The notes under the pieces: generated by a model
Database searches by the model: none
What the model saw: the letters and a program-made list of their open reading frames with translations, nothing else
Told to the model about the DNA's origin: nothing
NCBI GenBank assembly: GCA_965262595.1
Contig: OZ253548.1
Coordinates: 951,645-1,015,644, forward strand
Direction of reading: 5' to 3'
Length of the DNA: 64,000 bases
Source of the DNA: Dehalococcoidia bacterium
GTDB lineage: Bacteria; Chloroflexota; Dehalococcoidia; Lucifugimonadales; UBA3495
Translations under genes and position numbers: made by a program
In this document: positions 3,818-54,637 of the stretch, piece after piece
How the letters are laid out: each line of letters opens with the position of its first letter
How positions within the stretch are numbered: position 1 is the first letter of the stretch

Positions 3818-4233
3818 AAGTTATTCGTTAATCACTTGAACAAAATAAATCATCAATTCTGGAAATATTGTTGAAGAATTTAAACTATATACGAGTATAT
3901 TGATACGAAACTAGAATCTTTTGTGATATATTTACTGAAGTTAATTAAGATGATTTGTAGCTGATAGCTACGTTTTCATCACATGTTACGAATCAAAACA
4001 TCTGGGATCATTAAAATATAGTGCAGGAGGTGACAGTTAAGGAAGGGTATATTCTTGGCTCTGCTCAGATATAAGTTGGAATTCATGGGCGTGTAAGGGT
4101 CGCTGCCAGACTGTCGGCCCGGCACATCGGCGGTTGGACTTCAAGACCAATCACGAAAGGCGAAGAGCCAACGGACTAATTAACGACTCCCACCTGAAGC
4201 GCCTGGCGCCAAACCTGCCTTTTGGGAGAGATA

Positions 4234-6111: not shown

Positions 6112-6151
6112 TTCTTCACGGGTAAGACAAGTCTCCTTTAGAACGCACTTG

Positions 6152-6190
6152 GTAGGCCACCCACGTTAAAAGTGAGTGGCCTACTTTAGT
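6152..6190 (+). terminator. Hairpin terminator after SBP paralog 1
   Basis: GTAGGCCAC (6152-6160) pairs with GTGGCCTAC (6176-6184), followed by TTT. Confidence 0.5.
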
Positions 6191-6656
6191 ACCGGTTACG
6201 GGGCTGATCCGTCATTCCGAGTCCAACGCGTATTGGTAGTATTAGCCTGGACACCCTGAACTGGACGAGTAGAATAGGGCATGGTCAAAAGGTAAATGCG
6301 CCAATAACTTCATTCGACAATGATTCGCTTAAAAGTGCACTGGTATCGTATGGGTTTCCTTGTATATCTCCAAGAACGTCTTGTTGGCCTGGCAAAACTA
6401 ACTTTCAAAATGGTTGATATTCCGGGTCAACAGCTTCTCGAATTTTGGAAACTAAACATAAAGGAGGTGACGGATCATAGGTGACGGATTATAAAGGTAT
6501 TTGCCCGGGCCTGCTTAGAAACACCAGGGGATTGGCGGGCTAGTCGGGGCAACTCCCAAGCTACGGGGACAAACAAACGGCGGTTGGATCCTATTCCAGC
6601 TAAGTGTGGACACCAACAAAACCGGAGTAACCCTAAACTGACTTTTGGGAGAAATT

Positions 6657-8540: not shown

Positions 8541-8588
8541 TTCTTCACGGGTAACTGACCCTAATTCTGCTGACCATTCGAACACTCG

Positions 8589-8629
8589 GGCGAGCCACCT
8601 ATTCCACCCTTTCGAACGGGTGGTTCGCC
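8589..8629 (+). terminator. Hairpin after SBP paralog 2 (copy with a 9-nt insertion)
   Basis: GGCGAGCCACC-tatt-CCACCC TTTCGAAC GGGTGGTTCGCC. Confidence 0.45.
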
Positions 8630-8851
8630 TAATAAAACAAGGAGGCTTTGAATTAAGAACGGTCTCTACTGAATCAGCTCCGATACTAGCGGGGATTGGC
8701 GGGCGAGTCAGGGCAACTGCCAGACTGCCGGCTTGGCACATCGGAAATTGAACTTCAAGGCCTATAAGGATAGGCATGAGGGCCAACAACTCCGAAGGCA
8801 ACTCCGAACTGAAGCGCTCGGTACTAAACCCGTATTTTGGGAGGATTGATA

Positions 8852-10759
8852 ATGCCTTATTACAGTATCAGGAAACCTTGGACCATTGTATATCTTTCGG
8901 TGGTTTTGAGTCTCCTGTTCCTCGTTGCCTGCGGGTCGTCCAGTGCGCCGGTGGCGCCAGCGGCACCGGCGGCACCGCAGAACCAGCAACCGGCCGCCCC
9001 AGAATCGACCACCGCACCATCGACCGGCGCGGTTGAAATGTCGGCTCCCACGCCGACCACCGTGGCCCAAGCCGCTTTGGCCCCGGCAGGAGCAGCGGTA
9101 GCGGCCCCCCGGGAAGCGCCCAGTTTCGAGTCTTATTGGAAACCTAACACAGACTTCTACGGCCAGCCGAAATACGGCGGCACTCTCCGCATCAACTATG
9201 AAGACCCTCTGGAACACGCCAACGTTTGGGGCGCGCGCAGCGGCACCACCATGCGGTACCGAATGCCCACTCACGACGGCCTGATTCAGGACAACCCCTA
9301 TGACTGGAGAGCTCCTTTCATCCCGGATCTGGCCTACGGCTGGACCGTTGATTCAGACCTCAAGGGTGTGACCTTTTATCTCAAGGATGGGGTGCAATGG
9401 CACAACGGCACCGACTTCACCTGCGAAGATGCCCGGTTCACCTATGAAACCATGATTACAGAGGAAGGCATAACCGGTTCTTACATGAAGAACCGACTTA
9501 CGGATGTGGACTTGGACCTGCTGGAGTGCGTGGATGATTCAACGTTGAAATTCCGGTTCACCTCTCCCTCCGCCGTTCCTCTGCTCAGCTTTGGCAAAAG
9601 TGAGGCAATGATTTTCAACAAAGACTGGTTCCTGGCCGGTGGCGAAGATGCCATGTTCCAGGACGTATCTGTAGGAACCGGGCCTTTCATCTGGGGCGCC
9701 GGGCAGAGCGTTGGCATTGATGAACAAAGTTTTGAAAGGAATCCCAACTATCACGTAGAAGGCGTGCCCTATGTTGATAATCTCATCGTCTTCGGCATCC
9801 TTGACGAGACGGCGCAACAGGCAACCATGTTGGCCCACCAAACCGATTGGCACTGGGTGCGCAACTTCGGCCAATATGACGCTTACGTAAAACATGATCA
9901 AATCCAAACCGTGATACAGGCCACCCGAAGCAGCGAAAACCTGCACCTGAACACCCGTAAGCCGCCCCTCGACAATGTCCGGATTCGCCAGGCTATCGCC
10001 ATGGGAATGGACCGGAACACCGGCATCGCCGTCTCTCTATCCGGCTACGGCTCCGCCGGATTGGGCCTGATGCCTCCGGGCAGCCCTTGGGCCCTGGAGG
10101 AAGCCGAGGCCTGTGCTGTCCCTGGTTGGTGCCAGCCGGCAGACATGGAAGCCCAGCGGGCCGCGGCCATCCAAATCATGAAGGAAGAGAACTTCGATTT
10201 CGAAAAGACCTACGTCTTAACCGTAGAAGCAGATGCCCAACGGGTGGGCCGCGCCACCTTCATGCAGGAACAGCTACGACTGTTGGGAATCAAAACCGAC
10301 TTCGATACGGTTGAAACCATCGCCTACCGGAAATCGCGCCAAGCCGGCGACTGGGGCGACTTCATGGGATCCACCGGCGGTGTGGCTGGAGTGGATGACC
10401 CCTTCGTGGGATTGGGTCACTACCATCGCTGCGCCAGCCTGTATAATTTCCAGACTCCCGGCACGGAGTGCGATGCAACGGCGGAAGCGATGTTTGAGGA
10501 GTTAGGTAAGCTCACCGATCCGGCCGAGCGTAAGAAGCAGGGACAGGAAATCCAGGTTTACCTGATGGCGCAATACTGGAACTTCCCAGTCTTCTGGGAA
10601 GAGGAAGCGGTGTCCTTCTGGCCCGAGGTGCGGGGATACTCCCACTTCCCGACGCCCTCTGCGAGTCACCTGCGCTGGGCCCATATGTGGATTGACCCGG
10701 ACCACAAGGACGATACCGGGTTCGCCGGCCAAACCCTCGGTGTCCCCGGCGGCAAGTAG
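8852..10759 (+). CDS. ABC transporter substrate-binding lipoprotein, family 5, paralog 3
   Basis: ATG at 8852 sits behind GGGAGGA. Canonical lipobox LFLVAC|GSS, an Ala/Pro/Thr linker, and SBP_bac_5-like motifs (YGGTLRINYEDPLEH, NPNYHVEGVPYVDN). Confidence 0.85.
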   Translation: MPYYSIRKPWTIVYLSVVLSLLFLVACGSSSAPVAPAAPAAPQNQQPAAPESTTAPSTGAVEMSAPTPTTVAQAALAPAGAAVAAPREAPSFESYWKPNTDFYGQPKYGGTLRINYEDPLEHANVWGARSGTTMRYRMPTHDGLIQDNPYDWRAPFIPDLAYGWTVDSDLKGVTFYLKDGVQWHNGTDFTCEDARFTYETMITEEGITGSYMKNRLTDVDLDLLECVDDSTLKFRFTSPSAVPLLSFGKSEAMIFNKDWFLAGGEDAMFQDVSVGTGPFIWGAGQSVGIDEQSFERNPNYHVEGVPYVDNLIVFGILDETAQQATMLAHQTDWHWVRNFGQYDAYVKHDQIQTVIQATRSSENLHLNTRKPPLDNVRIRQAIAMGMDRNTGIAVSLSGYGSAGLGLMPPGSPWALEEAEACAVPGWCQPADMEAQRAAAIQIMKEENFDFEKTYVLTVEADAQRVGRATFMQEQLRLLGIKTDFDTVETIAYRKSRQAGDWGDFMGSTGGVAGVDDPFVGLGHYHRCASLYNFQTPGTECDATAEAMFEELGKLTDPAERKKQGQEIQVYLMAQYWNFPVFWEEEAVSFWPEVRGYSHFPTPSASHLRWAHMWIDPDHKDDTGFAGQTLGVPGGK

Positions 10760-10806
10760 CTTCCCAAGTAACCGAACCTATTACCGGATAACTTAACGGA
10801 CCCTTG

Positions 10807-10838
10807 GGCGAGCCACCCTTTCGAACGGGTGGTTCGCC
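10807..10838 (+). terminator. Hairpin after SBP paralog 3
   Basis: GGCGAGCCACCC (10807-10818), loop TTTCGAAC, GGGTGGTTCGCC (10827-10838). No clean T-tract follows. Confidence 0.45.
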
Positions 10839-11060
10839 TAATAAAACAAGGAGGTTTTGAATTAAGAACGGTCTCTACTGAGTCAGCTCCGATACTAGCG
10901 GGGATTGGCGGGCGAGTCAGGGCAACTGCCAGACTGCCGGCTTGGCACATCGGAAATTGAACTTCAAGGCCTATAAGGATAGGCATGAGGGCCAACAATT
11001 CCGAAGGCAACTTCGAACTGAAGCGCTCGGTACCAAACCCGTATTTTGGGAGGATTGATA

Positions 11061-12968
11061 ATGCCTAATTACAGTATCAGGAAACCTTGGACCATTGTAT
11101 ATCTTTCGGTGGTTTTGAGTCTCCTGTTCCTCGTTGCCTGCGGGTCGTCCAGTGCGCCGGTGGCGCCGGCGGCGCCGGTGGCACCGCAGAACCAGCAACC
11201 GGCCGCCCCAGAATCGACCACCGCACCATCGACCGGCGCGGTTGAAATGTCGGCTCCCACGCCGACCACCGTGGCCCAAGCCGCTTTGGCCCCGGCAGGA
11301 GCAGCGGTAGCGGCCCCCCGGGAAGCGCCCAGTTTCGAGTCTTATTGGAAACCTAACACAGACTTCTACGGCCAGCCGAAATACGGCGGCACTCTCCGCA
11401 TCAACTATGAAGACCCTCTGGAACACGCCAACGTTTGGGGCGCGCGCAGCGGCACCACCATGCGGTACCGAATGCCCACTCACGACGGCCTGATTCAGGA
11501 CAACCCCTATGACTGGAGAGCTCCTTTCATCCCGGATCTGGCCTACGGCTGGACCGTTGATTCAGACCTCAAGGGTGTGACCTTTTATCTCAAGGATGGG
11601 GTGCAATGGCACAACGGCACCGACTTCACCTGCGAAGATGCCCGGTTCACCTATGAAACCATGATTACAGAGGAAGGCATAACCGGTTCTTACATGAAGA
11701 ACCGACTTACGGATGTGGACTTGGACCTGCTGGAGTGCGTGGATGACTCGACGTTGAAATTCCGGTTCACCTCTCCCTCCGCCGTTCCTCTGCTCAGCTT
11801 TGGCAACCCGGCGGCAATGATTTTCAACAAGGACTGGTTCCTGGCCGGTGGCGAAGATGCCATGTTCCAGGACGTATCTGTAGGAACCGGGCCTTTCATC
11901 TGGGGCGCCGGGCAGAGCGTTGGCATTGATGAACAAAAATTTGAAAGGAATCCCAACTATCACGTAGAAGGCGTGCCCTATGTTGATAATCTCATCATCT
12001 TCGGCATCCTTGACGAGACGGCGCAACAGGCAACCATGTTGGCCCACCAAACCGATTGGCACTGGGTGCGCAACTTCGGCCAATATGACGCTTACGTAAA
12101 ACATGATCAAATCCAAACCGTGATACAGGCCACCCGAAGCAGCGAAAACCTGTGGCTGAACACCCGTAAGCCGCCCCTCGACAATGTCCGGATTCGCCAG
12201 GCTATCGCCATGGGAATGGACCGGACCACCGGCATCGCCGTCTCTCTATCCGGCTACGGCTCCGCCGGATTGGGCCTGATGCCTCCGGGCAGCCCTTGGG
12301 CCCTGGAGGAGGCCGAGGCCTGTGCTGTCCCTGGTTGGTGCCAGCCGGCAGACATGGAAGCCCAGCGGGCCGCGGCCATCCAAATCATGAAGGAAGAGAA
12401 CTTCGATTTCGAAAAGACCTACGTCTTAACCGTAGAAGCAGATGCCCAACGGGTGGGCCGCGCCACCTTCATGCAGGAACAGCTACGCCTGTTGGGAATC
12501 AAAACCGACTTCGATACGGTTGAAACCATCGCCTACCGGAAATCGCGCCAAGCCGGCGACTGGGGCGACTTCATGGGATCCACCGGCGGTGTGGCTGGAG
12601 TAGATGACCCCTTCGTGGGATTAGGTCACTACCATCGCTGCGCCAGCCTGTATAATTTCCAGACTCCCGGCACAGAGTGCGATGCAACGGCGGAAGCGAT
12701 GTTTGAGGAGTTAGGTAAGCTCACCGATCCGGCCGAGCGTAAGAAGCAGGGACAGGAAATCCAGGTTTACCTGATGGGGCAATACTGGAACTTCCCGGTC
12801 TTCTGGGAAGAGGAAGCGGTGTCCTTCTGGCCCGAGGTGCGGGGATACTCCCACTTCCCGTCGTCCACTACGAGTCACCTGCGCTGGGCCCATATGTGGA
12901 TTGACCCGGACCACAAGGACGATACCGGGTTCGCCGGCCAAACCCTCGGTGTCCCCGGCGGCAAGTAG
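11061..12968 (+). CDS. ABC transporter substrate-binding lipoprotein, family 5, paralog 4 (near-identical to paralog 3)
   Basis: The second unit of the tandem duplication. ATG at 11061. Confidence 0.85.
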   Translation: MPNYSIRKPWTIVYLSVVLSLLFLVACGSSSAPVAPAAPVAPQNQQPAAPESTTAPSTGAVEMSAPTPTTVAQAALAPAGAAVAAPREAPSFESYWKPNTDFYGQPKYGGTLRINYEDPLEHANVWGARSGTTMRYRMPTHDGLIQDNPYDWRAPFIPDLAYGWTVDSDLKGVTFYLKDGVQWHNGTDFTCEDARFTYETMITEEGITGSYMKNRLTDVDLDLLECVDDSTLKFRFTSPSAVPLLSFGNPAAMIFNKDWFLAGGEDAMFQDVSVGTGPFIWGAGQSVGIDEQKFERNPNYHVEGVPYVDNLIIFGILDETAQQATMLAHQTDWHWVRNFGQYDAYVKHDQIQTVIQATRSSENLWLNTRKPPLDNVRIRQAIAMGMDRTTGIAVSLSGYGSAGLGLMPPGSPWALEEAEACAVPGWCQPADMEAQRAAAIQIMKEENFDFEKTYVLTVEADAQRVGRATFMQEQLRLLGIKTDFDTVETIAYRKSRQAGDWGDFMGSTGGVAGVDDPFVGLGHYHRCASLYNFQTPGTECDATAEAMFEELGKLTDPAERKKQGQEIQVYLMGQYWNFPVFWEEEAVSFWPEVRGYSHFPSSTTSHLRWAHMWIDPDHKDDTGFAGQTLGVPGGK

Positions 12969-35171: not shown

Positions 35172-35765
35172 CTATATACCTCGAGCGGCCTCATAGGCTG
35201 CTATTTCATCCTCTTTCTGTAGCGTCAGGCCAATGTCGTCCAGGCCGTTGAGCAGGCAGTATCGCCGGAACGACTCGACCTCAAACTCCAGGACAATCTC
35301 CTCGTTTTCGTCCCAAATGCGTTGGGCATCCAGGTCAACATTCAACTGTATCCCCGGGTTATCTGAGGCCAGGTCGATAATCCGCCGCACCTGATCTTCG
35401 GGTAGGACGATGGGCAGCAAGCCGTTCTGGAAGCAGTTGTTGAAGAATATGTCAGCAAAGCTGGGGGCTATAACGCAGCGGATGCCGAAGTCGTTCAAGG
35501 CCCAGGGAGCATGCTCCCGGGAAGAGCCGCAACCGAAGTTGCGACCGGCAACGATGATACTGGCGTTCTGGTAGTCGGGCTGATTCAGCACAAACTCCGG
35601 TTTAGGACTGCCATCTTCGTTAAAACGCCAACTGGAAAAGAGAAACTCGCCGTATCCGGTACGTTCGATACGCTTCAGATGCACCGCCGGAATAATGGCG
35701 TCCGTGTCTATGTTTACCCGGTCTATCGGGGCTACCACCCCGGTCAATTTCACAAAGGGTTCCAT
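35172..35765 (-). CDS. leuD: 3-isopropylmalate dehydratase small subunit
   Basis: 197 aa. ...[10 protein letters not shown]...[15 protein letters not shown]. Confidence 0.9.
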
Positions 35766-35793: not shown

Positions 35794-37227
35794 TTACCAT
35801 TCCCTGATGTCAACGAAATGGCCGGCGATGGCAGCGGCAGCGGCCATGGGGGGGCTGACCAGATGAGTTCGCCCGCCCTTGCCCTGGCGACCTTCAAAGT
35901 TTCGGTTGGAAGTAGAGGCGCAGCGCTGACCCGGCTCCAGGACGTCCGGATTCATACCAAGGCACATGGAACAACCGGCTACGCGCCAGTCCAAACCGGC
36001 GTCGATAAATATGCGGTCCAGTCCCTCCTCCTCGGCCTGTTTCTTGACCAAGGCCGAGCCGGGGACAACCATAGCGTAAACGTCGGGGTGGGCTTTGCGG
36101 CCCTTTACGACCTCCGCCGCCGCTCGCAGGTCTTCCAGCCGAGCGTTGGTGCAGGCGCCGATAAATACCCGGTCGATTTTTACGTCCTGGATCGGCGTAT
36201 TCGGCTCCAGACCCATGTAAATCAAGGCGCGCTCGGCGGCCTCCCGTTGCGCTGCTTCGGCAAAAGAGGCCGGGTCGGGAACTCGGTCCGTAACTTTGGC
36301 AACCATGCCGGGATTGGTGCCCCAGGTAACAAAGGGTTCCAGGGAAGCGCCGTCTATCTCCACCAGCCGGTCAAAGGCAGCCCCCTGGTCGGTAGGCAGC
36401 TTGCGCCATTCTTCGATAGCCGCCTCCAATTCTGCGCCCTTGGGAGCGAACTGGCGGCCTTTTACATACTCAAAAGTGGTTTCATCCGGCGCAATCATCC
36501 CGGCCCGGGCGCCGCCTTCAATGCTCATGTTGCAGACCGTCATCCGACCGTCCATTGACATGGAGCGGATGGCTTCCCCGGTATATTCAATAACGTGACC
36601 GACACCGCCGTTGACGCCAATCTGACCGATGATGCCGAGAATGACATCTTTGGCAACCACGCCCATGGGCAGTTGTCCATTGACCCGCACTTCCATTGTC
36701 CTGGGTTTGAATTGGCGCAGGGTCTGGGTCGCCAGCACATGCTCCACTTCGGAAGTACCAATGCCCAGGGCAAAACAGCCCAGGGCGCCGTGGGTCGAGG
36801 TATGGCTATCGCCGCACACAACGGTCTTTCCGGGCTGGGTGTAACCCAAGTCCGGGCCGATGATGTGGACTATGCCTTGATAAGGACTGAAACGGTCGTA
36901 CAGGGTAATTCCGAATTCCCGCGTATTGTCGGTCAGGGCGTCCAACTGCCGCTTGGAAACCTCATCGGTAATGGGCAGGGACAGGTCCCAGGTAGGCGTA
37001 TTGTGGTCCGCGGTGGCGATGGTCAAATCGGGACGGCGTACCCCGCGCCCGGCCAACCGGAGACCGTCAAAGGCCTGGGGGGTTGTTACTTCGTGAATCA
37101 GGTGCAAATCTACATACAGCACCGTTGGCTGCCCCGGTTCCTCGTGAACCACGTGGGCATCCCAAATCTTTTCAAACATTGTTTTTGGCGGCATAACCAA
37201 TTGCTCTCCCTGGATAGTTTGCGTCAT
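35794..37227 (-). CDS. leuC: 3-isopropylmalate dehydratase large subunit
   Basis: ATG at 37225-37227 behind [20 protein letters not shown]...[14 protein letters not shown]...VCGDSHT...aconitase-family Cys motifs ([13 protein letters not shown]). Confidence 0.95.
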
Positions 37228-37409
37228 TATAACACCCTCCTTCACCCGTTCCACCACAATTCCCCCGAACGGACAAATCCAACAACCCGAGAGGCCTGGG
37301 CGAAATTGCCCTGAGACTTGCAATTCCTCCCCCACCCCCGCTAAAATCCAGAAGAGTCATCAATGGCGCAGGGTGTCTCCGCTCAACCCTGGTCGCAGGA
37401 GGAAAGGCA

Positions 37410-39437
37410 ATGGTTGCAGCAACCCGCATAATGGCTGCCGGAAAAGCCGGGCTGGAATGCCTGCCTTACTTTGTGGACGAACTGCTGGCACAGGGAATTC
37501 CCCAGTTGGCGCCCTGGGCAGCTGACCATATGCAAGAACAGATTAACACCCTGAACGTGATGGTTCAGGAACGACGCTCGGGACCATGGCAAAAGATTTA
37601 CCAGATTGGCAGCCCCAACACAAGAATAGGGATTGTGTTGACCCCGGACGAGGTCCAGAGTAAGCGGTTGCTGGGTCGGGTTAACCCCCTCAGCGCCGAG
37701 ACCACCGCATTAGCCGACCACCCGGCTTTGCTAGCCGCCTGGTGCCGAATAAATATCGGGCAGTACTGTCGTGAAACGTTGGCGCTGTGGGAAAGCTACA
37801 AGTGGGAAAACGGCCTTGGCAACGACCAGCAACTCGCGGTAGTGATACCCTTCTGCCCGGAGGGGCCTACTTCCGGGACTGTTGGTATGTACCTGGGTGC
37901 GGCCTTGCGAAAATACTTCGCGGACCGGAGAAGGGGCAACGAATTAGTGGTATGGGGCATTGAGCTTTGCCCGCCGGTGAACGAGGACGCTACCGGCAAT
38001 CTAGACCAATTTGCGGCGCGAAACATTTTCCGTGGTTTTGTAGCCCGGGAAGAATTGTTGCGAAACCAGGGGTTGCCTTTGACTGACAACCCTCAAGATA
38101 CGGGCAGCCATCAACCATTCGACATCACCATTGCATTCGATGGTGGCGCTACCAAAGCGCCCTTCGACGACATAAACGATATTCATCAAGCCATGGACCG
38201 GGCCGCGGCCCAGACCACTGCATGCTTGTTGAATGGTGCTGCCGGCGGCGACCCGGAAGAGTCAGCCAACTGGCTGAGAGAGGGCGGACGCTGGAACGCC
38301 CTCTTGACGCACGTAGTATCCGAAGGCTCTTATAACCGCGCTTGCCGTTATCTGAATTATCATGTAAGACTGCCCTGGTACCGGGAACCGGAAAAGTGGA
38401 AGGCGGCAAGTACTACCAGTCGGAAGCAGACTTTTAACACATGCGTCAAAGAGGAAATCCGCCCCTTGCTGGAAAACGAGAAGGATTCTACTGTCTTAGA
38501 GAAAGTCAAATTGCTGGCAAAATTTTCGGATGATGCGCAATCCGTGAAGTGGGATCAGGGCATTGCCAAACCTTTCACCGGGAATCACAAGAAAGTCGAA
38601 GCCATCCTCGGTGAAGCGTTAACAAAAAGCGAAGAAGCGTATCAGGAGTTCAACCTATCGTCCCCCAACGCGTTGGTAGCCCGGAAAGACCCTTTCTGCA
38701 TCAACATGATGTTGCCCGAGGGGCTGCGACGGTCATTGTCGGAGCAAATGCGAGACTCCAATGATCCAATCCCCCTTGGCAACTTTCTGGGCGACAACGC
38801 CATTTCAGCGGTCCGGAACCAGATAACAGGGCTTATCACGCAAGTTTTGCAGCGAAGCGACTGCCTGGCGCCGGAGTCCAACTCCCAAGCCCTTTTTGAG
38901 CAAATTATTGCCATTCCCATCGGGGATCTTAGCAACGACCCCAGCAACCGGAATTTCCGACCGTATCTGGGAAGCCTACTCGACTTTGTTCGAATTGAAA
39001 AGCGGGGACACGACGGCGATTTAAACTTCCTGCCATATAGTTTGCGCGAACGGGCACACGTGGCTGAACCGGAAAACAACGACCCGTGGGAGCGCATTTG
39101 GAGCCTGAAATGGAATCTGAAGGACGTTAGTTTTGACATTCCGGTTGAGTTCAGTTTCCTGACATTGGCCCGTTGCCGGCCCGAGGATGGTTTCAGAGAC
39201 GTAAGCACTTACGACCGATTAGAGCAAGCGCATAGAGAACGCACCGGTGATCTGCGTAGTTGGCAAGAGTATGCCCGTTATTACGGCGTAAGGCCGCCGA
39301 CGGCCCTGCTGACCACCGACTCCTCAGACAATGAAGAGCCGGGGCAGATCGATGCCGACAAGGATGGCCACAACACGGTCAGCCCTATTCCGGAGGCCGA
39401 CATACTAGAGAGCAAGTTTAATGCCGACCCTTCCTAA
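37410..39437 (+). CDS. Large hypothetical protein with degenerate tubulin/FtsZ-like N-terminal signatures
   Basis: 675-aa ORF behind AGGAGGAAAGGCA. Motifs: TRIMAAGKAGLECL (T1-like), LAVVIPFCPEGPTSGTVGMYLGAALRKYF (T4-like), ARNIFRGFVAREELL. The confidence value refers to the fold assignment; the ORF itself looks real. Confidence 0.35.
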   Translation: MVAATRIMAAGKAGLECLPYFVDELLAQGIPQLAPWAADHMQEQINTLNVMVQERRSGPWQKIYQIGSPNTRIGIVLTPDEVQSKRLLGRVNPLSAETTALADHPALLAAWCRINIGQYCRETLALWESYKWENGLGNDQQLAVVIPFCPEGPTSGTVGMYLGAALRKYFADRRRGNELVVWGIELCPPVNEDATGNLDQFAARNIFRGFVAREELLRNQGLPLTDNPQDTGSHQPFDITIAFDGGATKAPFDDINDIHQAMDRAAAQTTACLLNGAAGGDPEESANWLREGGRWNALLTHVVSEGSYNRACRYLNYHVRLPWYREPEKWKAASTTSRKQTFNTCVKEEIRPLLENEKDSTVLEKVKLLAKFSDDAQSVKWDQGIAKPFTGNHKKVEAILGEALTKSEEAYQEFNLSSPNALVARKDPFCINMMLPEGLRRSLSEQMRDSNDPIPLGNFLGDNAISAVRNQITGLITQVLQRSDCLAPESNSQALFEQIIAIPIGDLSNDPSNRNFRPYLGSLLDFVRIEKRGHDGDLNFLPYSLRERAHVAEPENNDPWERIWSLKWNLKDVSFDIPVEFSFLTLARCRPEDGFRDVSTYDRLEQAHRERTGDLRSWQEYARYYGVRPPTALLTTDSSDNEEPGQIDADKDGHNTVSPIPEADILESKFNADPS

Positions 39438-40251
39438 GCGCTTGTTGAATGCCGCATTGCTGGCTATCTTAGCAGTTGCCTTATTTTGGCCCGGCAGCAC
39501 CTCTGCTCAGCCTCCATTGCAGCGTGGATTGGAAACACCCGAAATCGCCGAGCCGGAATGTTCCTTTTATCTAGACCGCGATGGTGATGGCGAGGGCAAC
39601 GAACGATTTGACGCCGAACCTGAAGAATACGTCCCTCAGGAAACCCCCATAGTTGGCGGATGTACCTTCAAGTTGAACACTCCCGCCGAGGCAACCATGG
39701 TGGTCGAATCAGAGTTGAAAGACTGGAATGGGGACTTTAAGCTAAAGAAAGAACCCGGAATACCTACCGAACACAAGGTGTACCCTGGAGACAAGGAAAT
39801 ACCCAATGTCCAGGGGAGCATGGTGGTTACTCTCAATTTCCGGGGAAATACACCGCGCAGTATCAGATCCCGTACCCTGCCGGATGGGTATTGGCACGAG
39901 GTGCAAATCCCGGAGGAGTTTCAGCTGCTGGAGGTAACGGTTGTTACTGCTGACGGCAGAAGAGACCGCCTGGAGAAAAGCGTCAAGACCGCCAGCGTAG
40001 CCCATATCCAGGCTTACCGTCAACTTTCTGAGCAGGAAACTGAATTGCCGAATTGGGCCGTAGCTCTAGCCCAAGAACGACTCGCTGAAGGCTACCCCCA
40101 ATTTGCGGACCACGTCATCACGATGGCGATGAATTCCGGCAATGCAGGCAGTGGCGGCATCAATCGGTGGATGTGGTCGGCAATAATCACGTGGGCAGTA
40201 ATTTTTATCTTGGGCGCAGTTGGTGGTCTATTGTACATCAAAAACCACTAA
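39421..40251 (+). CDS. Hypothetical secreted protein with a C-terminal membrane anchor
   Basis: 276 aa. The start overlaps the upstream gene by 17 nt. Signal peptide ...LAILAVALFWPGSTSAQ, C-terminal TM helix WSAIITWAVIFILGAVGGLLYI. No family recognised. Confidence 0.6.
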   Translation: MPTLPKRLLNAALLAILAVALFWPGSTSAQPPLQRGLETPEIAEPECSFYLDRDGDGEGNERFDAEPEEYVPQETPIVGGCTFKLNTPAEATMVVESELKDWNGDFKLKKEPGIPTEHKVYPGDKEIPNVQGSMVVTLNFRGNTPRSIRSRTLPDGYWHEVQIPEEFQLLEVTVVTADGRRDRLEKSVKTASVAHIQAYRQLSEQETELPNWAVALAQERLAEGYPQFADHVITMAMNSGNAGSGGINRWMWSAIITWAVIFILGAVGGLLYIKNH

Positions 40252-40328
40252 CAGGGTTTGAGTTCATAGCCCCTAATCCAATTGGTATCTCCCTTTTTCA
40301 GCCCAGCTTTATTTGCTGCCTAGAGTTT

Positions 40329-40363
40329 TCCGCCGGCCATTGCCGCCGGCGGACTCTTGTTTT
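40329..40363 (+). terminator. Intrinsic terminator of the two-gene operon
   Basis: TCCGCCGGC (40329-40337) pairs with GCCGGCGGA (40345-40353), followed by CTCTTGTTTT. Confidence 0.75.
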
Positions 40364-40443
40364 GCCAAAACCATCCCGGCTTTATGGTAAACTACCAACA
40401 AATATCGCCTTATTATCAGCTAGACACACGGAGGAACCCTCCT

Positions 40444-43032
40444 ATGCCCACCACCGACGCCGTCGTCCTGCCCAGCAACGTCCGCCCCCGCCACTATCGG
40501 ATTACCCTACAGCCCGACCTGGACAAGTTCACCTTCGACGGGCTGGAACTCATTGACGTTGAGATTGCCGAAACCACCTCGGAGATTGTCCTCAACGCCG
40601 ATGAAATGCAAGTCCACACCGCCACCCTGGTCAAGGACGGCAGCAGCCAACGGGCCACTGCCATTACCCCGGACGGGAAACGGGAAACGGTCACTCTGTC
40701 CTTTGCCAACCCCATTGCTCCGGGGGCGGCTCAACTGGACCTGCGCTTTACCGGCGCGCTCAACGACAAGCTGCGCGGCTTTTACCGCAGCCAGTACGTC
40801 AACCCGGAGGGCGAGGTCAGCTACCTGGCTACCACCCAGTTTGAGGCCACCGACGCCCGCCGCGCCTTCCCCTGCTGGGATGAGCCGTCCTGCAAGGCCA
40901 CCTTCCAGTTGACCCTCAATATACCGACGCAAATGGTTGCCGTATCCAACACCCCTATCATTGACCAGGCCGGGTTGGACGCGGGTTACAAGTCCATTAT
41001 GTTCGCCCGGACTCCGGTTATGTCCACCTACCTGATGGCCTTTGTCATCGGCGACCTCACCTACATTGAGCAGGAGGCCGCCAACAACACCCGGGTCGGG
41101 GTTTGGACCACTCGGGGCAAGGAGGAACAAGGCCGTTTCGCCCTGGAAACCTCAGCGCGAATGCTGTCCTTCTTCAACGATTACTTCGGCATACCCTACC
41201 CCCTGGAGAAGCTGGACCATATTGCCATCCCCGACTTTGCCGCTGGAGCGATGGAAAACTGGGGCTGCATCACCTATCGGGAAACCGCTTTGCTGGTGGA
41301 CCCGGATAACTCCTCGGCGGGCACCCGGCAACGAGTAGCCGAGGTGGTGGCCCACGAAATGGCCCATATGTGGTTCGGCGACCTGGTCACTATGGAGTGG
41401 TGGGACGACCTGTGGCTCAACGAAAGTTTTGCCTCCTGGATGGGCACCAAGGCAGTGGATTGGGCCTTCCCGGAATGGCAGATGTGGACCCAGTTCGTCA
41501 ATATGGACACCAACCGGGCTTTGAGCCTGGACGGACTCAAGAACTCCCACCCCATTGAGCAGGAAGTTAAAGACCCGTCTGAAATAAGCCAGCTTTTTGA
41601 CGCCATCAGCTACAGTAAAGGCGCATCGGTTATCCGAATGCTGGAACAATTCTTGACCCCGGAGGTTTTTCAGCAGGGATTGCACCAATACCTCAACGCC
41701 AATCAATACGCCAACGCCCGTACCGAGCATCTTTGGGCGGCCCTGGAAGAAGCATCCCAACAGCCGGTAACTGCCATAATGGGCACCTGGACCGGGCAGA
41801 TGGGTTATCCGGTACTGCGGGTAGAAGCCCACGAATCCGGAGACCACCTGGAACTGGCGCTGTCGCAGGAGCGGTTTGTCTATGACAACCTGATGGGTGA
41901 GTCCGAGCCGGAGCAAATGGTGTGGCAGGTGCCGGTGGGCGTCGTCCAGAGTGGCAACGGTGAGGGCCAAATCCTGGTAATGGATAGTCCGCAAGCCCGG
42001 CTGCGCCTGGACCGACCGGCCGGCGCCGATGGGTGGTTTAAGGTAAACCCGCTGCAGACCGGTTTCTTCCGGGTGAACTACTCCGAGGCCGACTGGCAGC
42101 GCCTGATTCCGGCAATCAGCGCCCTGACCTTGCCCGCTACCGACCGGCTGGGCATCCAGAATGACGCCTACGCCCTTTCCAAGGCGGGCTTGCTGCCCGT
42201 AACCCAGTTCCTTGCCCTGGCCGAGGCCTACAAAAACGAGGACGACGCCTCAGTATGGAGCGACCTGGCCAGCAACCTGAGGGATATTGAACTGCTGGTG
42301 GCTGATGAACCGTATCACGAAAACTACCGCTCCTTTGCTCGTAACCTGTTCGGCCCGGCGGCCCGGCGCATCGGCTGGGAAGCCAGGGACGGAGAAGGAC
42401 ACCTGGACGCCTTGCTCCGCAGCACGGTGTTGAGCCAGGCCGGCAGCTACGGCGACCCGGAGTTTTTGAGCCAAGCCCGAGAACGGTTCGACGCCTACGT
42501 TAAGGACGCCTCCTCGCTCCATCCCGACCTGCGGGGGCTGGTATTCAGCCTGGCGGCCCAGGGCGGGGACGAGGAGACCTACAGCCGGCTGTGGGAGTTG
42601 GAAAGGAAGGCCGACCTGCAGGAGGAAAAGATTCGGCTGCTGCTGGCCCTGGGCCGGTTTACCCAGCCGGAACTCTTGCAGGAAACGCTGCGGCGCGCCC
42701 TCACCGACGACGTGCGCTCTCAGGACACCATCATGGTCATTACCGCGGTGGCCGCCAACCTGCGGGGACGGCAACCGGCCTGGCAGTTCGTCAAGGACAA
42801 TTGGGCCGAGTTTGACCGGCGCTACGGAGACGGCGGGTTTGGGTTGATGCGCCTGGTATCCATCTGCAGCAATTTCGTGGACGCTGATAAGCTGGCCGAG
42901 GTGGAAACCTTCTTCCAGGAACACCCGGCCCCGGCCGCAGAGCGCACCATCCGACAAGCCCTGGAACGCGTTCGGCTGAATGTCCGTTGGCTGGAGCTTA
43001 ACCGGGCGGAGCTGGCGGGGAGGTTTGGGTAA
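40444..43032 (+). CDS. pepN: Aminopeptidase N (M1 family)
   Basis: ATG at 40444 behind GGAGGA. GAMENWG exopeptidase motif, HEMAHMWFGDLVTMEWWDDLWLNESFA (HExxH-18-E zinc site). Confidence 0.92.
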   Translation: MPTTDAVVLPSNVRPRHYRITLQPDLDKFTFDGLELIDVEIAETTSEIVLNADEMQVHTATLVKDGSSQRATAITPDGKRETVTLSFANPIAPGAAQLDLRFTGALNDKLRGFYRSQYVNPEGEVSYLATTQFEATDARRAFPCWDEPSCKATFQLTLNIPTQMVAVSNTPIIDQAGLDAGYKSIMFARTPVMSTYLMAFVIGDLTYIEQEAANNTRVGVWTTRGKEEQGRFALETSARMLSFFNDYFGIPYPLEKLDHIAIPDFAAGAMENWGCITYRETALLVDPDNSSAGTRQRVAEVVAHEMAHMWFGDLVTMEWWDDLWLNESFASWMGTKAVDWAFPEWQMWTQFVNMDTNRALSLDGLKNSHPIEQEVKDPSEISQLFDAISYSKGASVIRMLEQFLTPEVFQQGLHQYLNANQYANARTEHLWAALEEASQQPVTAIMGTWTGQMGYPVLRVEAHESGDHLELALSQERFVYDNLMGESEPEQMVWQVPVGVVQSGNGEGQILVMDSPQARLRLDRPAGADGWFKVNPLQTGFFRVNYSEADWQRLIPAISALTLPATDRLGIQNDAYALSKAGLLPVTQFLALAEAYKNEDDASVWSDLASNLRDIELLVADEPYHENYRSFARNLFGPAARRIGWEARDGEGHLDALLRSTVLSQAGSYGDPEFLSQARERFDAYVKDASSLHPDLRGLVFSLAAQGGDEETYSRLWELERKADLQEEKIRLLLALGRFTQPELLQETLRRALTDDVRSQDTIMVITAVAANLRGRQPAWQFVKDNWAEFDRRYGDGGFGLMRLVSICSNFVDADKLAEVETFFQEHPAPAAERTIRQALERVRLNVRWLELNRAELAGRFG

Positions 43033-43143: not shown

Positions 43144-44514
43144 TCACGTTTCGTCCTTAGTACCTTTCCAAGAGTCGGCAAATTCTTGGGCTGCACTGCC
43201 TTTAGGATGGTGTTCCCGGCATACAACCACACCATTAGCCAAGTCAGTTTGTCCTCCTTGATAATGTTCTTTCACGTGATGGATTTCTAGGTCATTCCAA
43301 GCTACTTCCTCACCACCTACGGCACATTTCTTATCGTCCCTGAAGTAGATAATTTCCCGCTCCAGCGACCCAAATACACGCTTGGAGTCTTTAGCCTGGA
43401 GCGGCTGAAGGAAATCGCACATACGGTCAGCATAGAAGCCATGGCGCCGACGTATGCTATCGCCTTGATTTGCCATATTATATGTCCATTGACCATAGCG
43501 CGCCCAAAACTCATCCGGCTGAATCGAGGTTTTGGTTTTCGCACCGCTCGCTAGCGCGTAGGAAAACTTATCCACTGACTTGGAAAGTGTAGACTCCCAC
43601 GAGCGGGTGTAGTCATCCCATAGCGAATCTAGGAGAAGTACAAGATGGATGGCAATGTGTGCTCCCAATCGCGGGCGTTTACCGTCCCCCAGAAGGGCAT
43701 CCAGCTTGTCCAGAATCGCGATGAGACGTTTGCTGTCTCCAGAATCGGCATCGAAGTCGATATGGGTATAATAGAAAACATCTATCGACTGAGCGTCGAT
43801 ATTGGTGAAATGGTCTGGCCCAGCCTCGTGCCGGGTTAAATACAGCATCGCGATTTGTGCAGCCAGCGTACGAGTCTTCCCTCGGCCTTGCCCCGGGTTC
43901 ATTCTCATAACCCGTTGGAAAAAGGGATGGCCGGGGTATCTAGTTAGGGCAGGCTTACCACCAAGTTTTAGGATGAAATCGGTAAACCCTCCAGGATAAG
44001 CGTCTCGTTTTTCTTGGGGATTAAGCGGAAGTCCAGCTTGAAGTCGGACGAAAAGGTCTCTTACCTCATTTGCGTCATCGCTGGTAATCTTGGCAATGGG
44101 CAACTCGGTATTCATAAACTTGGATACGAGGTCATCCGTTAGCGACTGGAACGCCTTCCCGGCCCAGGGGCACGACTGTTCCTTCAGGAACTTGGGAAAA
44201 CGCGCCTGAGCGTCATCTTTGATGGGATCGAACAAAGAATATGTGCCTTCTGAAAACTCGTACAGAGCGTTAATCCGCTGCTGACCGTCAATAATCTCCA
44301 AGTCATCCCGTTGCATTCCGGCAACCGACTTCTGAATATGATGAAGGTATATGAGCGGTAGCGGATATCCCCGCATCACCGAGTCAATAAGTTTCTTCTT
44401 CTGGCTAGGAGTCCAAACAGCTCCTCTCTGGTACTCGGGGTTTGCTTTTAGCATTCCATTCCGGAATAGATCCAGAATGGCACTTACTGAAAGGTATTCC
44501 TGATTTATATCCAT
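43144..44514 (-). CDS. DUF262 (ParB-like nuclease/NTPase) + C-terminal HNH endonuclease, GmrSD-like type IV restriction-type defence protein
   Basis: I prefer the ATG at 44512-44514. PEYQRGAVW....KKKLIDSVMRGYPLP.IYL...LEIIDGQQR (DUF262 DGQQR motif). C-terminus: CAVGGEEV...LEIHHVKEHYQGGQTDLANGVVVCREHH (HNH). The gene is visibly lower in GC than its flanks. Confidence 0.75.
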   Translation of the reverse strand: MDINQEYLSVSAILDLFRNGMLKANPEYQRGAVWTPSQKKKLIDSVMRGYPLPLIYLHHIQKSVAGMQRDDLEIIDGQQRINALYEFSEGTYSLFDPIKDDAQARFPKFLKEQSCPWAGKAFQSLTDDLVSKFMNTELPIAKITSDDANEVRDLFVRLQAGLPLNPQEKRDAYPGGFTDFILKLGGKPALTRYPGHPFFQRVMRMNPGQGRGKTRTLAAQIAMLYLTRHEAGPDHFTNIDAQSIDVFYYTHIDFDADSGDSKRLIAILDKLDALLGDGKRPRLGAHIAIHLVLLLDSLWDDYTRSWESTLSKSVDKFSYALASGAKTKTSIQPDEFWARYGQWTYNMANQGDSIRRRHGFYADRMCDFLQPLQAKDSKRVFGSLEREIIYFRDDKKCAVGGEEVAWNDLEIHHVKEHYQGGQTDLANGVVVCREHHPKGSAAQEFADSWKGTKDET

Positions 44515-44682
44515 AATCCCATCCTGCTCACTGATACTGCAACGATAATAAGACCACGAACAATCAAACGTCAAACAATTTCCCACCCCTACCGCCCCAA
44601 CTTAATTTGACAGCCACCGCCCCAGCGGGTAGGCTTGAGTTTGAACCCCGTAGGCGGAATCCATTAGACTCTTATGTGATAT

Positions 44683-52339: not shown

Positions 52340-53443
52340 CTAGTTATGACACCCGCGAGCCTGGATGTCCCAAACCGCCTCCACCACGCCGTTCCTCACT
52401 CCGACGAAGCGGTCCCAGCGGCTGACCATGGCGTCCTGCTGGCCCGGAATCAGTTGAACCTGATCCCCAATCTCCAACTCCACCCCGGCATCCAGACGGA
52501 ATACTATGCGGTCGGCATCCATTTCCGCCGCGGTGACGCCGGGTCGATTCTCCACTCGCGGCAGACCCTTGAGTCCGCCGACGGCCCGGGCGCCCGCATC
52601 CCCGACCGCCGAATCCTGTCGGGGCCTACTAATAATCGTGGTTAACACCTTGCCGGCGAATTGAAAATCGGACATATAGTCGTAACCGGTCTCCATTACC
52701 AGGTAGGTTCCGCCCTGAATTTCGGTTACACCGGGTATCTCACCGGCCACGTCATAGCTCCAGGTTTCGCCGGTTGAGACTATTTCCACCGGCACACCGG
52801 CGGCAATAATGGCGTCCTTAAGGTCCAGCACCGGCTGAATCAAGCGGTGGGCCTCGGTAACCCGGTCTTCCCGGTCGGAAGAGGGTTCGGCCATCATCTG
52901 GTGACTCATAACTCCCTTAAAAGTGAGGCCGGGGAGCGAGTCAATCAACCGGGCCAGGGCGACTCCGGGCTCCAATTCTTGAACGCCGCAGCGGACCAAT
53001 CCGGTTTCCTGCTCAATCACAACCCCCAGATTAACGCCCAGAGCCGACGCCGAACGGGAGAGGTCGCGGGCGTTTTCCGCATCGTCGCAGGCCACCAGCA
53101 TTTCCGCCTGACGGGCCAGGGTACACAGGCGCTCGATTTTCAGCGGCGAAACTATTTCGCTGGTGATGAAAACGCTGGGGATCCCGCCGTGAACCATTAC
53201 CTCCGCCTCAGCTACTTTGGCGGCGCAGACTCCGCCGACGGTGCCACCCCTTCGGATTTGCCGCAGCGCCAACGCCGGGGTTTTATGGTTCTTGCTGTGA
53301 CCCCGCAACTTGCTGCTTTGGCCCTCATAATAGTCCGCGATTACGCCCATGTTACGGTCCAGAGCATCCAAATCGAGAATCAGGCAGGGCGTATCCAGGT
53401 CTTCCAGCGGAGTTCCAGGTTGCGGACGATAGATTTGGTGCAT
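52340..53443 (-). CDS. DSD1/D-TA family PLP enzyme (alanine-racemase-fold D-serine dehydratase / D-threonine aldolase type)
   Basis: 367 aa. DTPCLILDLDALDRNM...LRGHSKNHKTPALA..Q...G..GV..AKV.EAE (PLP-Lys context), plus the C-terminal D-serine-dehydratase-like domain. Confidence 0.75.
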   Translation of the reverse strand: MHQIYRPQPGTPLEDLDTPCLILDLDALDRNMGVIADYYEGQSSKLRGHSKNHKTPALALRQIRRGGTVGGVCAAKVAEAEVMVHGGIPSVFITSEIVSPLKIERLCTLARQAEMLVACDDAENARDLSRSASALGVNLGVVIEQETGLVRCGVQELEPGVALARLIDSLPGLTFKGVMSHQMMAEPSSDREDRVTEAHRLIQPVLDLKDAIIAAGVPVEIVSTGETWSYDVAGEIPGVTEIQGGTYLVMETGYDYMSDFQFAGKVLTTIISRPRQDSAVGDAGARAVGGLKGLPRVENRPGVTAAEMDADRIVFRLDAGVELEIGDQVQLIPGQQDAMVSRWDRFVGVRNGVVEAVWDIQARGCHN

Positions 53444-53527
53444 TTCAAATCCTCCCCAAAAGGCAATGTTTACTTATCGCTAAGGACGCCCGGACACCGG
53501 AATGCAAGCTGCCCTGACCGCCCGGAT

Positions 53528-54637
53528 TTAATCCAGCCGGCCGCGAGCGGCGATGGGCCAATAGCCAACCAGCTTGCCATTGTTCACCGCCCGAACGTAA
53601 TCAAACTGGTTGACACAGAGGGCCAGGTTATAAGGAACCAGCCAGGCCTTGTCCTTGGGCATCAGCCGCCCCGAGGCCGACTCTTCCAATTCCAGAACGC
53701 CGTGTTCGGCGCTGAACCGGGTTGCGGCGGCCCCGTCCATTCCGTCCAGCGTGGGCAGGCCAAAATCCGGCCCGGTTGTCTTGTGGCCGGCGTCCACCAC
53801 CGCGCGGCCGGAGACCGGATGGCTGATAACCATGCAAAGCACCCGGGCCGCCGGCGCGAACTCCGGGCGGATTCGGCAATTTTCGGCATCCATTAACGGG
53901 TAAACCCCGGCTTGAACCTCGGTTACTCCGCTAATACCTGCCGCCACGTCATAGTTGTGGGTGCTGCCAACACTGACCACGGCCACCGGCAAGCCCGACC
54001 GCTCCAGCCGTTCCCTGGTATCCACCACCGGCTGCAGTCGACGGAGAGTTTCGGCCTTTAGAGCGGCTTGGTCGGTGAACGGCAAGGGCCCTTCATAGGC
54101 CATAATTCCCTGAAAATCCAGGCCGGGAGCGCGGGAAACGGCGGCGGCCAACTCGACGGCTTCCTGCCCTGGAGCTACACCCCCATAACCGTACCCGGCA
54201 TCGATGTCCACCAAAACCCCCAGAGACACCCCGGCATCGGTCGCCGCCTCCGACAAGTCGGCTATATTGCGCGGGCTGTCCACCGCCAGAGCAATCGCAG
54301 CGGTTCGAGCCAGTGCGCACAGACGTCTGATTTTGGGACGGGTGACCACCCGATTGGCAATAAGGATGTTGTCGAAACCGGCGCCGGCGAAGACTTCCGC
54401 CTCTCCAAGGGAATTAACGGCAATACCTCCGGCATGGCCACTGCCGCCCAGTTGCAAACGGGCAATATCAGGACACTGATGACAACTAACATGAGGACGA
54501 ATCTTGGCGTCGGCGTCGCGGAAAACGCGGTGCAGCGTCTCGATATTGCGGGCCATTAACTCCAGATCCACGACCAGAGCCGGGGAATCCAATTCTTCCT
54601 GGGGAGTGCCAACCGGTTGGAAAATCGGTCGCTCCAT
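53528..54637 (-). CDS. DSD1/D-TA family PLP enzyme, paralog
   Basis: 369 aa, colinear with the neighbouring paralog (DSPALVVDLELMARNI...IRPHVSCHQCPDIA...). Confidence 0.75.
   Translation of the reverse strand: MERPIFQPVGTPQEELDSPALVVDLELMARNIETLHRVFRDADAKIRPHVSCHQCPDIARLQLGGSGHAGGIAVNSLGEAEVFAGAGFDNILIANRVVTRPKIRRLCALARTAAIALAVDSPRNIADLSEAATDAGVSLGVLVDIDAGYGYGGVAPGQEAVELAAAVSRAPGLDFQGIMAYEGPLPFTDQAALKAETLRRLQPVVDTRERLERSGLPVAVVSVGSTHNYDVAAGISGVTEVQAGVYPLMDAENCRIRPEFAPAARVLCMVISHPVSGRAVVDAGHKTTGPDFGLPTLDGMDGAAATRFSAEHGVLELEESASGRLMPKDKAWLVPYNLALCVNQFDYVRAVNNGKLVGYWPIAARGRLD

Follow-up and report, generated by a model that had tools for sequence, protein, structure and literature searches.

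A translationally coupled gene pair in a Dehalococcoidia genome

The window analysed here is a stretch of 64,000 nucleotides (nt) from a Dehalococcoidia bacterium (assembly GCA_965262595.1, contig OZ253548.1, positions 951,645 to 1,015,644). It contains two overlapping genes, here called A and B, which form a translationally coupled two-gene module found so far only in Dehalococcoidia/SAR202. An earlier note, made from the sequence alone, had read A as a divergent tubulin/FtsZ-like protein coupled to a membrane-anchored partner, B. At the level of predicted fold and of gene linkage, the analysis described below supports that reading. The unit comprises the following elements.

37410-39437, plus strand: gene A, an open reading frame (ORF) of 675 amino acids (aa) with an ATG start and a TAA stop at 39435-39437
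39421-40251, plus strand: gene B, an ORF of 276 aa
37397-37402, plus strand: Shine-Dalgarno sequence AGGAGG, evident in the sequence itself, 7 nt upstream of the start codon of A
40329-40363, plus strand: intrinsic terminator that closes the A-B unit, with the tail CTCTTGTTTT after the stem

The ATG of B sits inside the 3' end of A, so that the two genes share 17 nt. The terminator stem (40329-40353) has 9 bp, eight of them G:C, and a 7-nt loop. ORFs, ribosome-binding site, overlap, terminator and flanking genes all lie where the earlier note had put them, and every sequence feature that it described was confirmed. It had also recognised no standard family for either protein, which agrees with our searches: neither A nor B matched Pfam, NCBIfam, PADLOC or the PDB sequences. 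Searches with both proteins gave weak matches to Laminin_G_2 (expectation value, E, 0.047) and to a transposase N-domain (E = 0.061), both below cut-offs.

A and B are conserved and inherited together

The pair had been called an orphan, a description that no longer holds. For A, 96 clusters of homologs were found at E ≤ 1e-73; nearly all are 630-720 aa long and not one carries a Pfam domain. B accompanies A in every locus. Where a source gives an A homolog a name, it is just "hypothetical protein". For B, a word-limited search returned 17 homologous clusters and tblastn found a match in every locus. Of 1.84 billion representatives scanned exhaustively with HMMER, only 42 reached E ≤ 0.001, so the A family is narrow, and searching the representatives exhaustively with the A family uncovered no bridging family. 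A search seeded from the most divergent member, P0110, likewise returned known members alone and no hidden sister clade. One further protein (P0115, 4832 aa) matched A residues 35-71 significantly but was rejected as spurious, being built of about 30 copies of a 110-aa repeat that each score about 0-4 bits. No relatives of the pair were found in a scan of viral contigs.

We determined the distribution of the family in one genome per prokaryotic species. There were 24 A loci in 23 genomes, all labelled Dehalococcoidia; one of these is the bin of a SAR202 symbiont, bin87 from the sponge Aplysina aerophoba (PMC5649159). One Dehalococcoidia genome (OZ220731.1) carries two distant A-B pairs (L005 and L014), whose A proteins share 47% and 42% identity with that of the window.

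The 26 loci that were fetched represent 24 unique loci, and a B homolog lies directly downstream of A in all 26. Stop and start overlap by 1 nt in 16 of the 26 and by 4 nt in one more, against 17 nt in the window. When all flanking ORFs were clustered, A and B were the sole conserved genes, with other neighbours common to at most six loci. Pairwise divergence of A tracks that of B (Mantel r = 0.83; 0 of 2000 permutations reached that value). The neighbourhood search that the earlier note had proposed thus found A and B together in every genome where the family occurs, and even beside the outlier P0110. This protein has 632 aa and 24% identity, and is encoded on a 4.5-kb Logan contig (L027 459-4321). 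Next downstream comes a protein of 655 aa that shows homology to the beta domain of B in its N-terminal part (E = 7e-8). The remainder of that 655-aa partner is a long, unmatched and apparently repetitive extension; the protein has no Pfam match.

Given the linkage, the co-divergence and the pairing even at P0110, we conclude that A-B is an old, co-inherited, translationally coupled unit. That it is a real conserved operon is virtually certain. A literature search found no description of the family.

Two loci have altered A genes. In L017 (3384-6001), a 2.5-kb element of the IS21 family, on the opposite strand, interrupts A after about residue 45; it encodes IstA, with an rve domain, and IstB. 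The partner gene remains. In L022 (7050-7573), a stretch of about 175 aa with many Glu, Lys and Arg residues is inserted in frame after residue 369 of A, at the position of the helical insert described below. The naive ORF of this A stops at 7806 and its integrity is uncertain.

A is predicted to have a tubulin/FtsZ-superfamily fold

We modelled A with AlphaFold2 from an alignment of 71 fairly similar family members (effective number of sequences, Neff, about 3.7). The best model had a predicted local distance difference test score (pLDDT) of 89.4 and a predicted template modelling score (pTM) of 0.89, and the five models were concordant (pLDDT 87.5-89.4). Compared with the PDB by Foldseek, it gave 243 matches at E ≤ 1e-3. 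The best 50 of these were alpha, beta and gamma tubulins and CetZ2, all with probability 1.00 and with E-values from 3e-6 to 3e-5. Template modelling (TM) scores normalised by target were about 0.5 for the tubulins and 0.64 for CetZ2 (root-mean-square deviation, rmsd, 6.8), the highest among the matches listed. In BFVD, an independent library of viral structures, the top matches were phage tubulin, phage FtsZ and PhuZ-type proteins. The structural search suggested by the earlier note therefore listed folds of the tubulin/FtsZ superfamily only. Hydropathy analysis found no hydrophobic segments in A, which is predicted to be cytoplasmic.

The following features were placed on A.

37440-37451, plus strand: T1-like loop G11-K-A-G14, between strand S1 (residues 2-10) and helix H1 (11-27)
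37854-37880, plus strand: T4-position motif C149-P-E-G-P-T-S-G-T157, between S4 (141-148) and H4 (153-172)
38172-38261, plus strand: H7 (residues 255-274), T7-like loop and start of H8 with D281-x-x-E284, placed from secondary structure and conservation
38412-38651, plus strand: family-specific three-helix insertion, residues 335-414, in the C-terminal half (helices 335-354, 360-378 and 392-414)
39321-39434, plus strand: disordered acidic tail, residues 638-675, net charge -8, pLDDT < 50

Elements in the model run S1-H1-S2-H2-(insert)-H3-S4-H4-S5-H5-S6-H7-H8-S7, followed by a mixed alpha/beta C-terminal half. From S1 to S7 this is the order of tubulin/FtsZ superfamily structures. The two-domain architecture of the superfamily, a Rossmann-like N-domain and a C-domain on either side of the core helix H7, is present in the predicted, not a solved, structure of A. 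The three-helix insertion is poorly conserved. On the strength of the models, A very probably has a tubulin/FtsZ-superfamily fold.

Invariant residues fall on the predicted pocket loops

A glycine-rich T1 loop follows S1 directly in the superfamily, and A has such a loop. Its G11 and G14 are invariant in the 71 sequences, while P0110 has G-K-A-S. Topology would make G11-K-A-G14 the T1 loop, and the T1 position proposed in the earlier note fits the predicted S1 and H1 (residues 2-27). Profile alignment with hhalign lays MAAGKAGLE on IQAGQCGNQIG of tubulin and IGVGGGGGN of FtsZ, without significance.

The second motif had been described as T4-like in position and shape but degenerate. Its position holds, between S4 and H4 (residues 141-172); its degeneracy does not. 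Around this loop the family shows no variation at I146, P147, C149, E151, G152, T154, S155, G156 and T157; P150 and P153 reach a conservation of at least 90%, and CPEGPTSGT is identical in P0110 despite 24% identity. Because the loop is invariant across the family, P0110 included, it has not decayed. It is not the canonical T4 signature GGGTG[ST]G, with which only G152 and T154 coincide.

Other invariant residues are G183 and E185 on S5; R208, G209 and R213 on H5; D244 and G245 after S6; D263, A266, A267 and Q268 on H7; and E284 at the start of H8. The acids of D281-x-x-E284 are kept in P0110, and their spacing is like that of N-x-D-x-x-E254 in tubulin and N-x-D-x-x-D212 in FtsZ. By element order, E284 would occupy the T7/H8 catalytic-acid position, at which tubulins and FtsZ bear an acid completing the active site of the neighbouring subunit, and the preceding segments would be equivalent to H7 and T7. 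Conserved residues thus occupy H7, the beginning of H8 and the loops that come after S1, S4, S5 and S6, and are kept at 24% identity.

The acidic tail is the only disordered part of the A model. Across the family the tails have a median length of 29 aa and a median charge of -4. The motif NG[QHY] occurs in 33 of the 71 tails, compared with 0.9 expected from shuffled tails; the window A has DGH in its place. This layout resembles the linker and C-terminal peptide of FtsZ, the tail of PhuZ and the acidic tails of tubulins. In TubZ and PhuZ, extended C-terminal tails make filament contacts, and by analogy such a role is possible for the acidic tail of A.

B is predicted to be a membrane-anchored extracytoplasmic protein

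The features of B are as follows.

39430-39507, plus strand: N-terminal hydrophobic leader, residues 4-29, preceded by K6 and R7 and followed by STSA-Q
39541-39993, plus strand: immunoglobulin (Ig)-like beta-sandwich, residues 41-191, extracytoplasmic
39574-39591, plus strand: conserved DxDxDG loop, D52-R-D-G-D-G57
39997-40140, plus strand: three-helix stalk from sandwich to membrane, residues 193-240, with G224-Y-P226 invariant
40165-40242, plus strand: C-terminal transmembrane helix, residues 249-274 (hydropathy 2.35; model helix 249-275)

The earlier note had given B a signal peptide, an acidic stretch and a C-terminal transmembrane helix. The protein does have a hydrophobic leader, the acidic DRDGDGEGNERFD stretch and a single C-terminal transmembrane segment, and hydropathy agrees. 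From hydropathy and a model helix at residues 6-22, the leader is predicted to be either a signal peptide or a signal anchor. The structural model (pLDDT 83.6) consists of the beta-sandwich, three helices and the transmembrane helix. Taken together, hydropathy, topology signals and the model indicate that the bulk of B is extracytoplasmic and membrane-anchored. C47 and C81 are its sole cysteines, both invariant, and probably form a disulfide. DxDxDG is a known calcium-binding motif. Foldseek matched B to generic E-set/Ig-like folds alone (RhoGDI, ApaG, the arrestin N-lobe and AGS-C) with low TM scores; these matches being so generic, we draw no specific function from them.

After the transmembrane helix, the window B has a two-residue cytoplasmic end, N275-H276. 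In its homologs this end is a basic tail of 10-25 aa, which closes with R-x-N-M in about half of them. The basic tail with R-x-N-M at the carboxyl terminus is found in about half of loci L002-L026 and is missing from the window B and its closest relatives. Such basic tails of B may be docking peptides for the acidic tail of A.

Genomic surroundings

The following features lie upstream of A.

37318-37347, plus strand: promoter-like TTGCAA-18 nt-TAAAAT, about 60 nt upstream of A, with 9 of 12 matches
35172-35765, minus strand: leuD
35794-37335, minus strand: leuC

The promoter scan did not rise above chance, with one site found against 1.8 expected in shuffled sequences, so that its position is the sole merit of this site. 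Downstream of the pair is an M1 aminopeptidase of the pepN type. Its start is more likely the ATG at 40444, preceded by GGAGG at 40430-40434, than the TTG at 40357 that begins the longest ORF, which would cross the tail of the terminator hairpin (window 40357-40446). With the ATG as the start, the terminator is intergenic.

No division genes were found in the window around A-B, which is otherwise an ordinary SAR202-type chromosome. Over all loci, the commonest families among 133 flanking ORFs were P-type ATPases, glutamate dehydrogenase, MFS transporters, amidohydrolases, LeuC and M1 peptidases.

Three other features of the window were recorded. Four tandem paralogous genes at 4222-12968 (plus strand) encode proteins of 629, 631, 640 and 640 aa, all SBP_bac_5, and make up an expanded set of family-5 extracellular solute-binding proteins. 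At 43144-44586 (minus strand), a 480-aa protein combines GmrSD_N (DUF262) with a C-terminal HNH nuclease, as in type IV restriction; with a GC content of 0.49, against 0.57 for the window, this gene was probably acquired horizontally. Two tandem paralogs at 52340-54637 (minus strand), of 367 and 369 aa, each have Ala_racemase_N and D-serine dehydratase-like domains.

Comparison with known systems

The best structural matches to A, among those listed, are tubulin/gamma-tubulin and CetZ (e.g. PDB 4b45). Like tubulin, A has a G-x-x-G T1 loop and about 140 residues between T1 and T4. It also has an acidic C-terminal tail, as in this group, and by element order would have an acid at the T7/H8 position. 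Unlike both, A shows no detectable sequence similarity to the group, has CPEGPTSGT for GGGTGSG, carries about 250 extra residues and occurs in bacteria with an obligate downstream membrane partner. CetZ, as Duggin et al. reportedly described in 2015, determines rod shape in archaea that have no peptidoglycan. Membership of A in CetZ, which is defined as archaeal and as recognisable by the Pfam Tubulin domain and the CetZ C-terminal HMM, is ruled out by the bacterial hosts and by the absence of a Pfam Tubulin match. CetZ-like proteins of Dehalococcoidia were collected by Santana-Molina et al. via Pfam tubulin domains (PMC9871819); gathered in that way, they differ from the A family.

Like FtsZ, A is predicted to have the superfamily fold, and it has a disordered C-terminal linker with a short conserved motif. 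FtsZ with FtsA, ZipA and SepF offers an analogy that suggests polymer-membrane coupling for A-B as well. FtsZ is absent from the 50 structural matches listed for A. Unlike the FtsZ tethers, B lies almost wholly outside the cytoplasm and its gene overlaps that of A, and no division or cell-wall genes lie near A-B.

The FtsZ-like families FtsZl1 and FtsZl2 are divergent prokaryotic branches with inserts between T1 and T4, which retain GGGTG[ST]G and can be recognised with HHpred/PSI-BLAST (PMC2875224). FtsZl1, which occurs in Chloroflexi, has a coiled coil and a helical C-domain without a recognisable T6-H7; it is encoded alongside membrane-associated proteins, has vWA, OmpA, kinase and GTPase neighbours, and has a proposed role in membrane remodelling (PMC2875224). 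FtsZl2 is confined to Proteobacteria, has canonical T1, T4, T6, T7 and H7, and has no associated genes (PMC2875224). A resembles both as a very divergent prokaryotic branch with an insert between T1 and T4. However, the defining features of neither family are found in A, and its link to these families of Makarova and Koonin, which the earlier note had invoked, is one of analogy only. FtsZl2 membership is ruled out by the Dehalococcoidia hosts (24 of 24 loci), the non-canonical T4 and the obligate partner. As to the partners of FtsZl1, no vWA, OmpA, Ser/Thr kinase or divergent GTPase was among the commonest 25 families in the 133 flanking ORFs.

TubZ and PhuZ, which provided the matches in the viral structure library, are plasmid and phage proteins with DNA-segregation partners (TubR/tubC). 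Unlike them, A-B is chromosomal, includes a membrane partner and has no relatives on viral contigs. MreB-RodZ is a functional analogy only: a cytoplasmic filament is tied, by way of a membrane-anchored protein, to a domain outside the cytoplasm, in the service of rod shape. Unlike A-B, MreB has the actin fold, RodZ has a sizeable cytoplasmic domain and the system acts on peptidoglycan synthesis.

Discussion

We propose the following explanation for A-B. A would be made in fixed proportion with B, would bind nucleotide and would assemble head to tail beneath the membrane, like other members of the superfamily. B would tether A or be positioned by it. A cytoplasmic filament linked in this way to a surface-exposed domain would amount to a cytoskeleton-to-envelope module in bacteria without peptidoglycan. 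SAR202 genomes are without peptidoglycan-synthesis genes, and the cells of sponge SAR202 are rod-shaped, measuring 0.8 by 1-2 micrometres (PMC6306507). A tubulin-fold A with a membrane-anchored B as a cytoskeleton-to-envelope module is the best overall explanation and on balance a probable one, held with modest confidence; a filament-forming, membrane-coupled function, taken by itself, is plausible but somewhat doubtful.

Several results weigh against this proposal. The Pfam families Tubulin (PF00091), FtsZ_C, Tubulin_C and Tubulin_2 matched none of the 71 A members, even at E ≤ 10, so that the profile searches that the earlier note had called for came out negative. Its comparison of ARNIFRGFVAREELL in A with Tubulin_2 could not be substantiated either, since PF13809 matched 0 of 71 members. 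Below cut-offs, Pfam gave scattered BAR_4, IQ and Gp44-like matches on these sequences. An A-family hidden Markov model (HMM) run against the PDB sequences found no tubulin or FtsZ, only designed helical proteins at E > 0.3. With hhalign, the probability of a match to FtsZ or tubulin stayed below 1%, a weak negative given the shallow templates. Queries here were the full family alignment and the N-domain with seven extra divergent members; templates were FtsZ (three sequences), tubulin (two) and all five together. Of the five reference sequences, two (E. coli FtsZ and human beta-tubulin) were confirmed against PDB chains. Since the sequence-level tests were negative, assignment of A to the superfamily is founded on predicted structure and motif placement. 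Global superpositions are loose, with TM scores by query of 0.33-0.38 and an rmsd of 12-13 Å for tubulins, in part because of the roughly 250 residues of insertions. The equivalences for H7 and T7 come from topology, not from superposed coordinates. GTP binding by A is not assured, because the phosphate-binding GGGTG[ST]G is replaced by a Cys/Pro/Glu loop. Nor is direct contact between A and B obvious, as the window B exposes two cytoplasmic residues. Finally, with carriers numbering 23 among the species-representative genomes scanned, A-B is not a general determinant of SAR202 shape.

The main rival to the filament mechanism is a non-polymerising enzyme or switch with the tubulin fold. Its re-tooled pocket (Cys149, Glu151, Thr154 and Ser155) would bind another ligand or act catalytically, and B would be an extracellular calcium- or ligand-dependent sensor, or a partner in export or adhesion. 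The pocket itself speaks for this: the phosphate-binding glycines are replaced and yet the motif is invariant, which points to a new, strongly selected chemistry and not to decay, and the invariant R208, G209 and R213 on H5 have no canonical counterpart. The insertions could also block longitudinal contacts, and Makarova and Koonin considered that filaments might not be formed by FtsZ-like proteins that have diverged very far (PMC2875224). However, without head-to-tail assembly there is no easy explanation for the invariant acid at the expected inter-subunit catalytic site (D281-x-x-E284), the tail of A is built like those of polymerising relatives, and no enzyme fold was among the structural matches listed. 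We regard a non-polymerising A as rather unlikely.

Similarly improbable is a bolder form of the filament proposal. In it, A-B would be a new superfamily branch with a pocket rebuilt around CPEGPTSGT and a calcium-binding partner at the surface, would organise the envelope or rod shape of peptidoglycan-less SAR202, and would possibly use a chemistry other than that of GTP.

The likeness to tubulin and FtsZ could instead be a prediction artefact or a convergent Rossmann-like arrangement in an unrelated family. All sequence-based tests were negative, identity to the structural matches is 8-12%, TM scores by query are below 0.4, and a single model was built from 71 fairly similar sequences. Against this, the five AlphaFold2 models agree, and two independent libraries are topped by this superfamily alone, with probability 1.00 and 243 significant matches in the PDB. 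Scores by target reach 0.5-0.64, the alignments run across both domains, and the conserved residues fall on the expected pocket loops. An artefact is thus a very unlikely explanation.

A mobile or anti-phage defence module, with a membrane effector and a cytoplasmic NTPase sensor, was considered because the genomic context is variable, the distribution is patchy and one genome has two copies. In L001 (592-2397 and 13362-17358), GmrSD_C, a HepT-like toxin and BrxC/BrxD-like genes lie within 8 kb of the pair; in the window the GmrSD_N-HNH gene is 2.9 kb downstream; and in L002 an IS66 transposase adjoins the pair. However, PADLOC matches neither A nor B, no PADLOC family is found in more than two of the 133 flanking ORFs, the neighbours met most often are housekeeping genes and the L001 pattern did not recur consistently at other loci. 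Viral contigs hold no relatives, the GC content of the pair is close to that of its neighbours, A and B co-diverge as if inherited vertically, and the order leuCD, pair, pepN is common to related genomes. After the bulk scans of flanking ORFs we rejected a defence island or mobile element, whose probability is slight.

That A is a divergent FtsZl1 (Pfam Tubulin_2) protein is hardly credible, for although each is a long FtsZ-like protein that has helical additions and shares its operon with membrane-associated partners, and FtsZl1 does occur in Chloroflexi, PF13809 matches no A member, the GGGTG[ST]G that FtsZl1 keeps is absent, the model has the T6-H7 and C-domain elements that FtsZl1 lacks, and no vWA, OmpA, kinase or GTPase partner stands beside A.

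From the models, A would thus represent a new family within the tubulin/FtsZ superfamily, accompanied by an obligate membrane partner, separate from FtsZl1/Tubulin_2 and not detected by sequence profiles. This superfamily makes up one of the two major cytoskeletal lineages; new prokaryotic branches (TubZ, PhuZ, CetZ, BtubAB, FtsZl1/2 and Odin tubulin) have each changed evolutionary or functional views of it. With GGGTGSG exchanged for another invariant motif, A tests what the nucleotide chemistry and the assembly of the fold truly require. To our knowledge, a strictly coupled, mostly extracellular membrane partner has not been described for the superfamily. Structure prediction, it appears, still uncovers deep members of well-studied superfamilies among "hypothetical proteins". 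The carriers are abundant, uncultivated marine and sponge-associated SAR202/Dehalococcoidia and, since SAR202 cells are reported to be rod-shaped without peptidoglycan, A-B is a concrete candidate for the organisation of their envelope.

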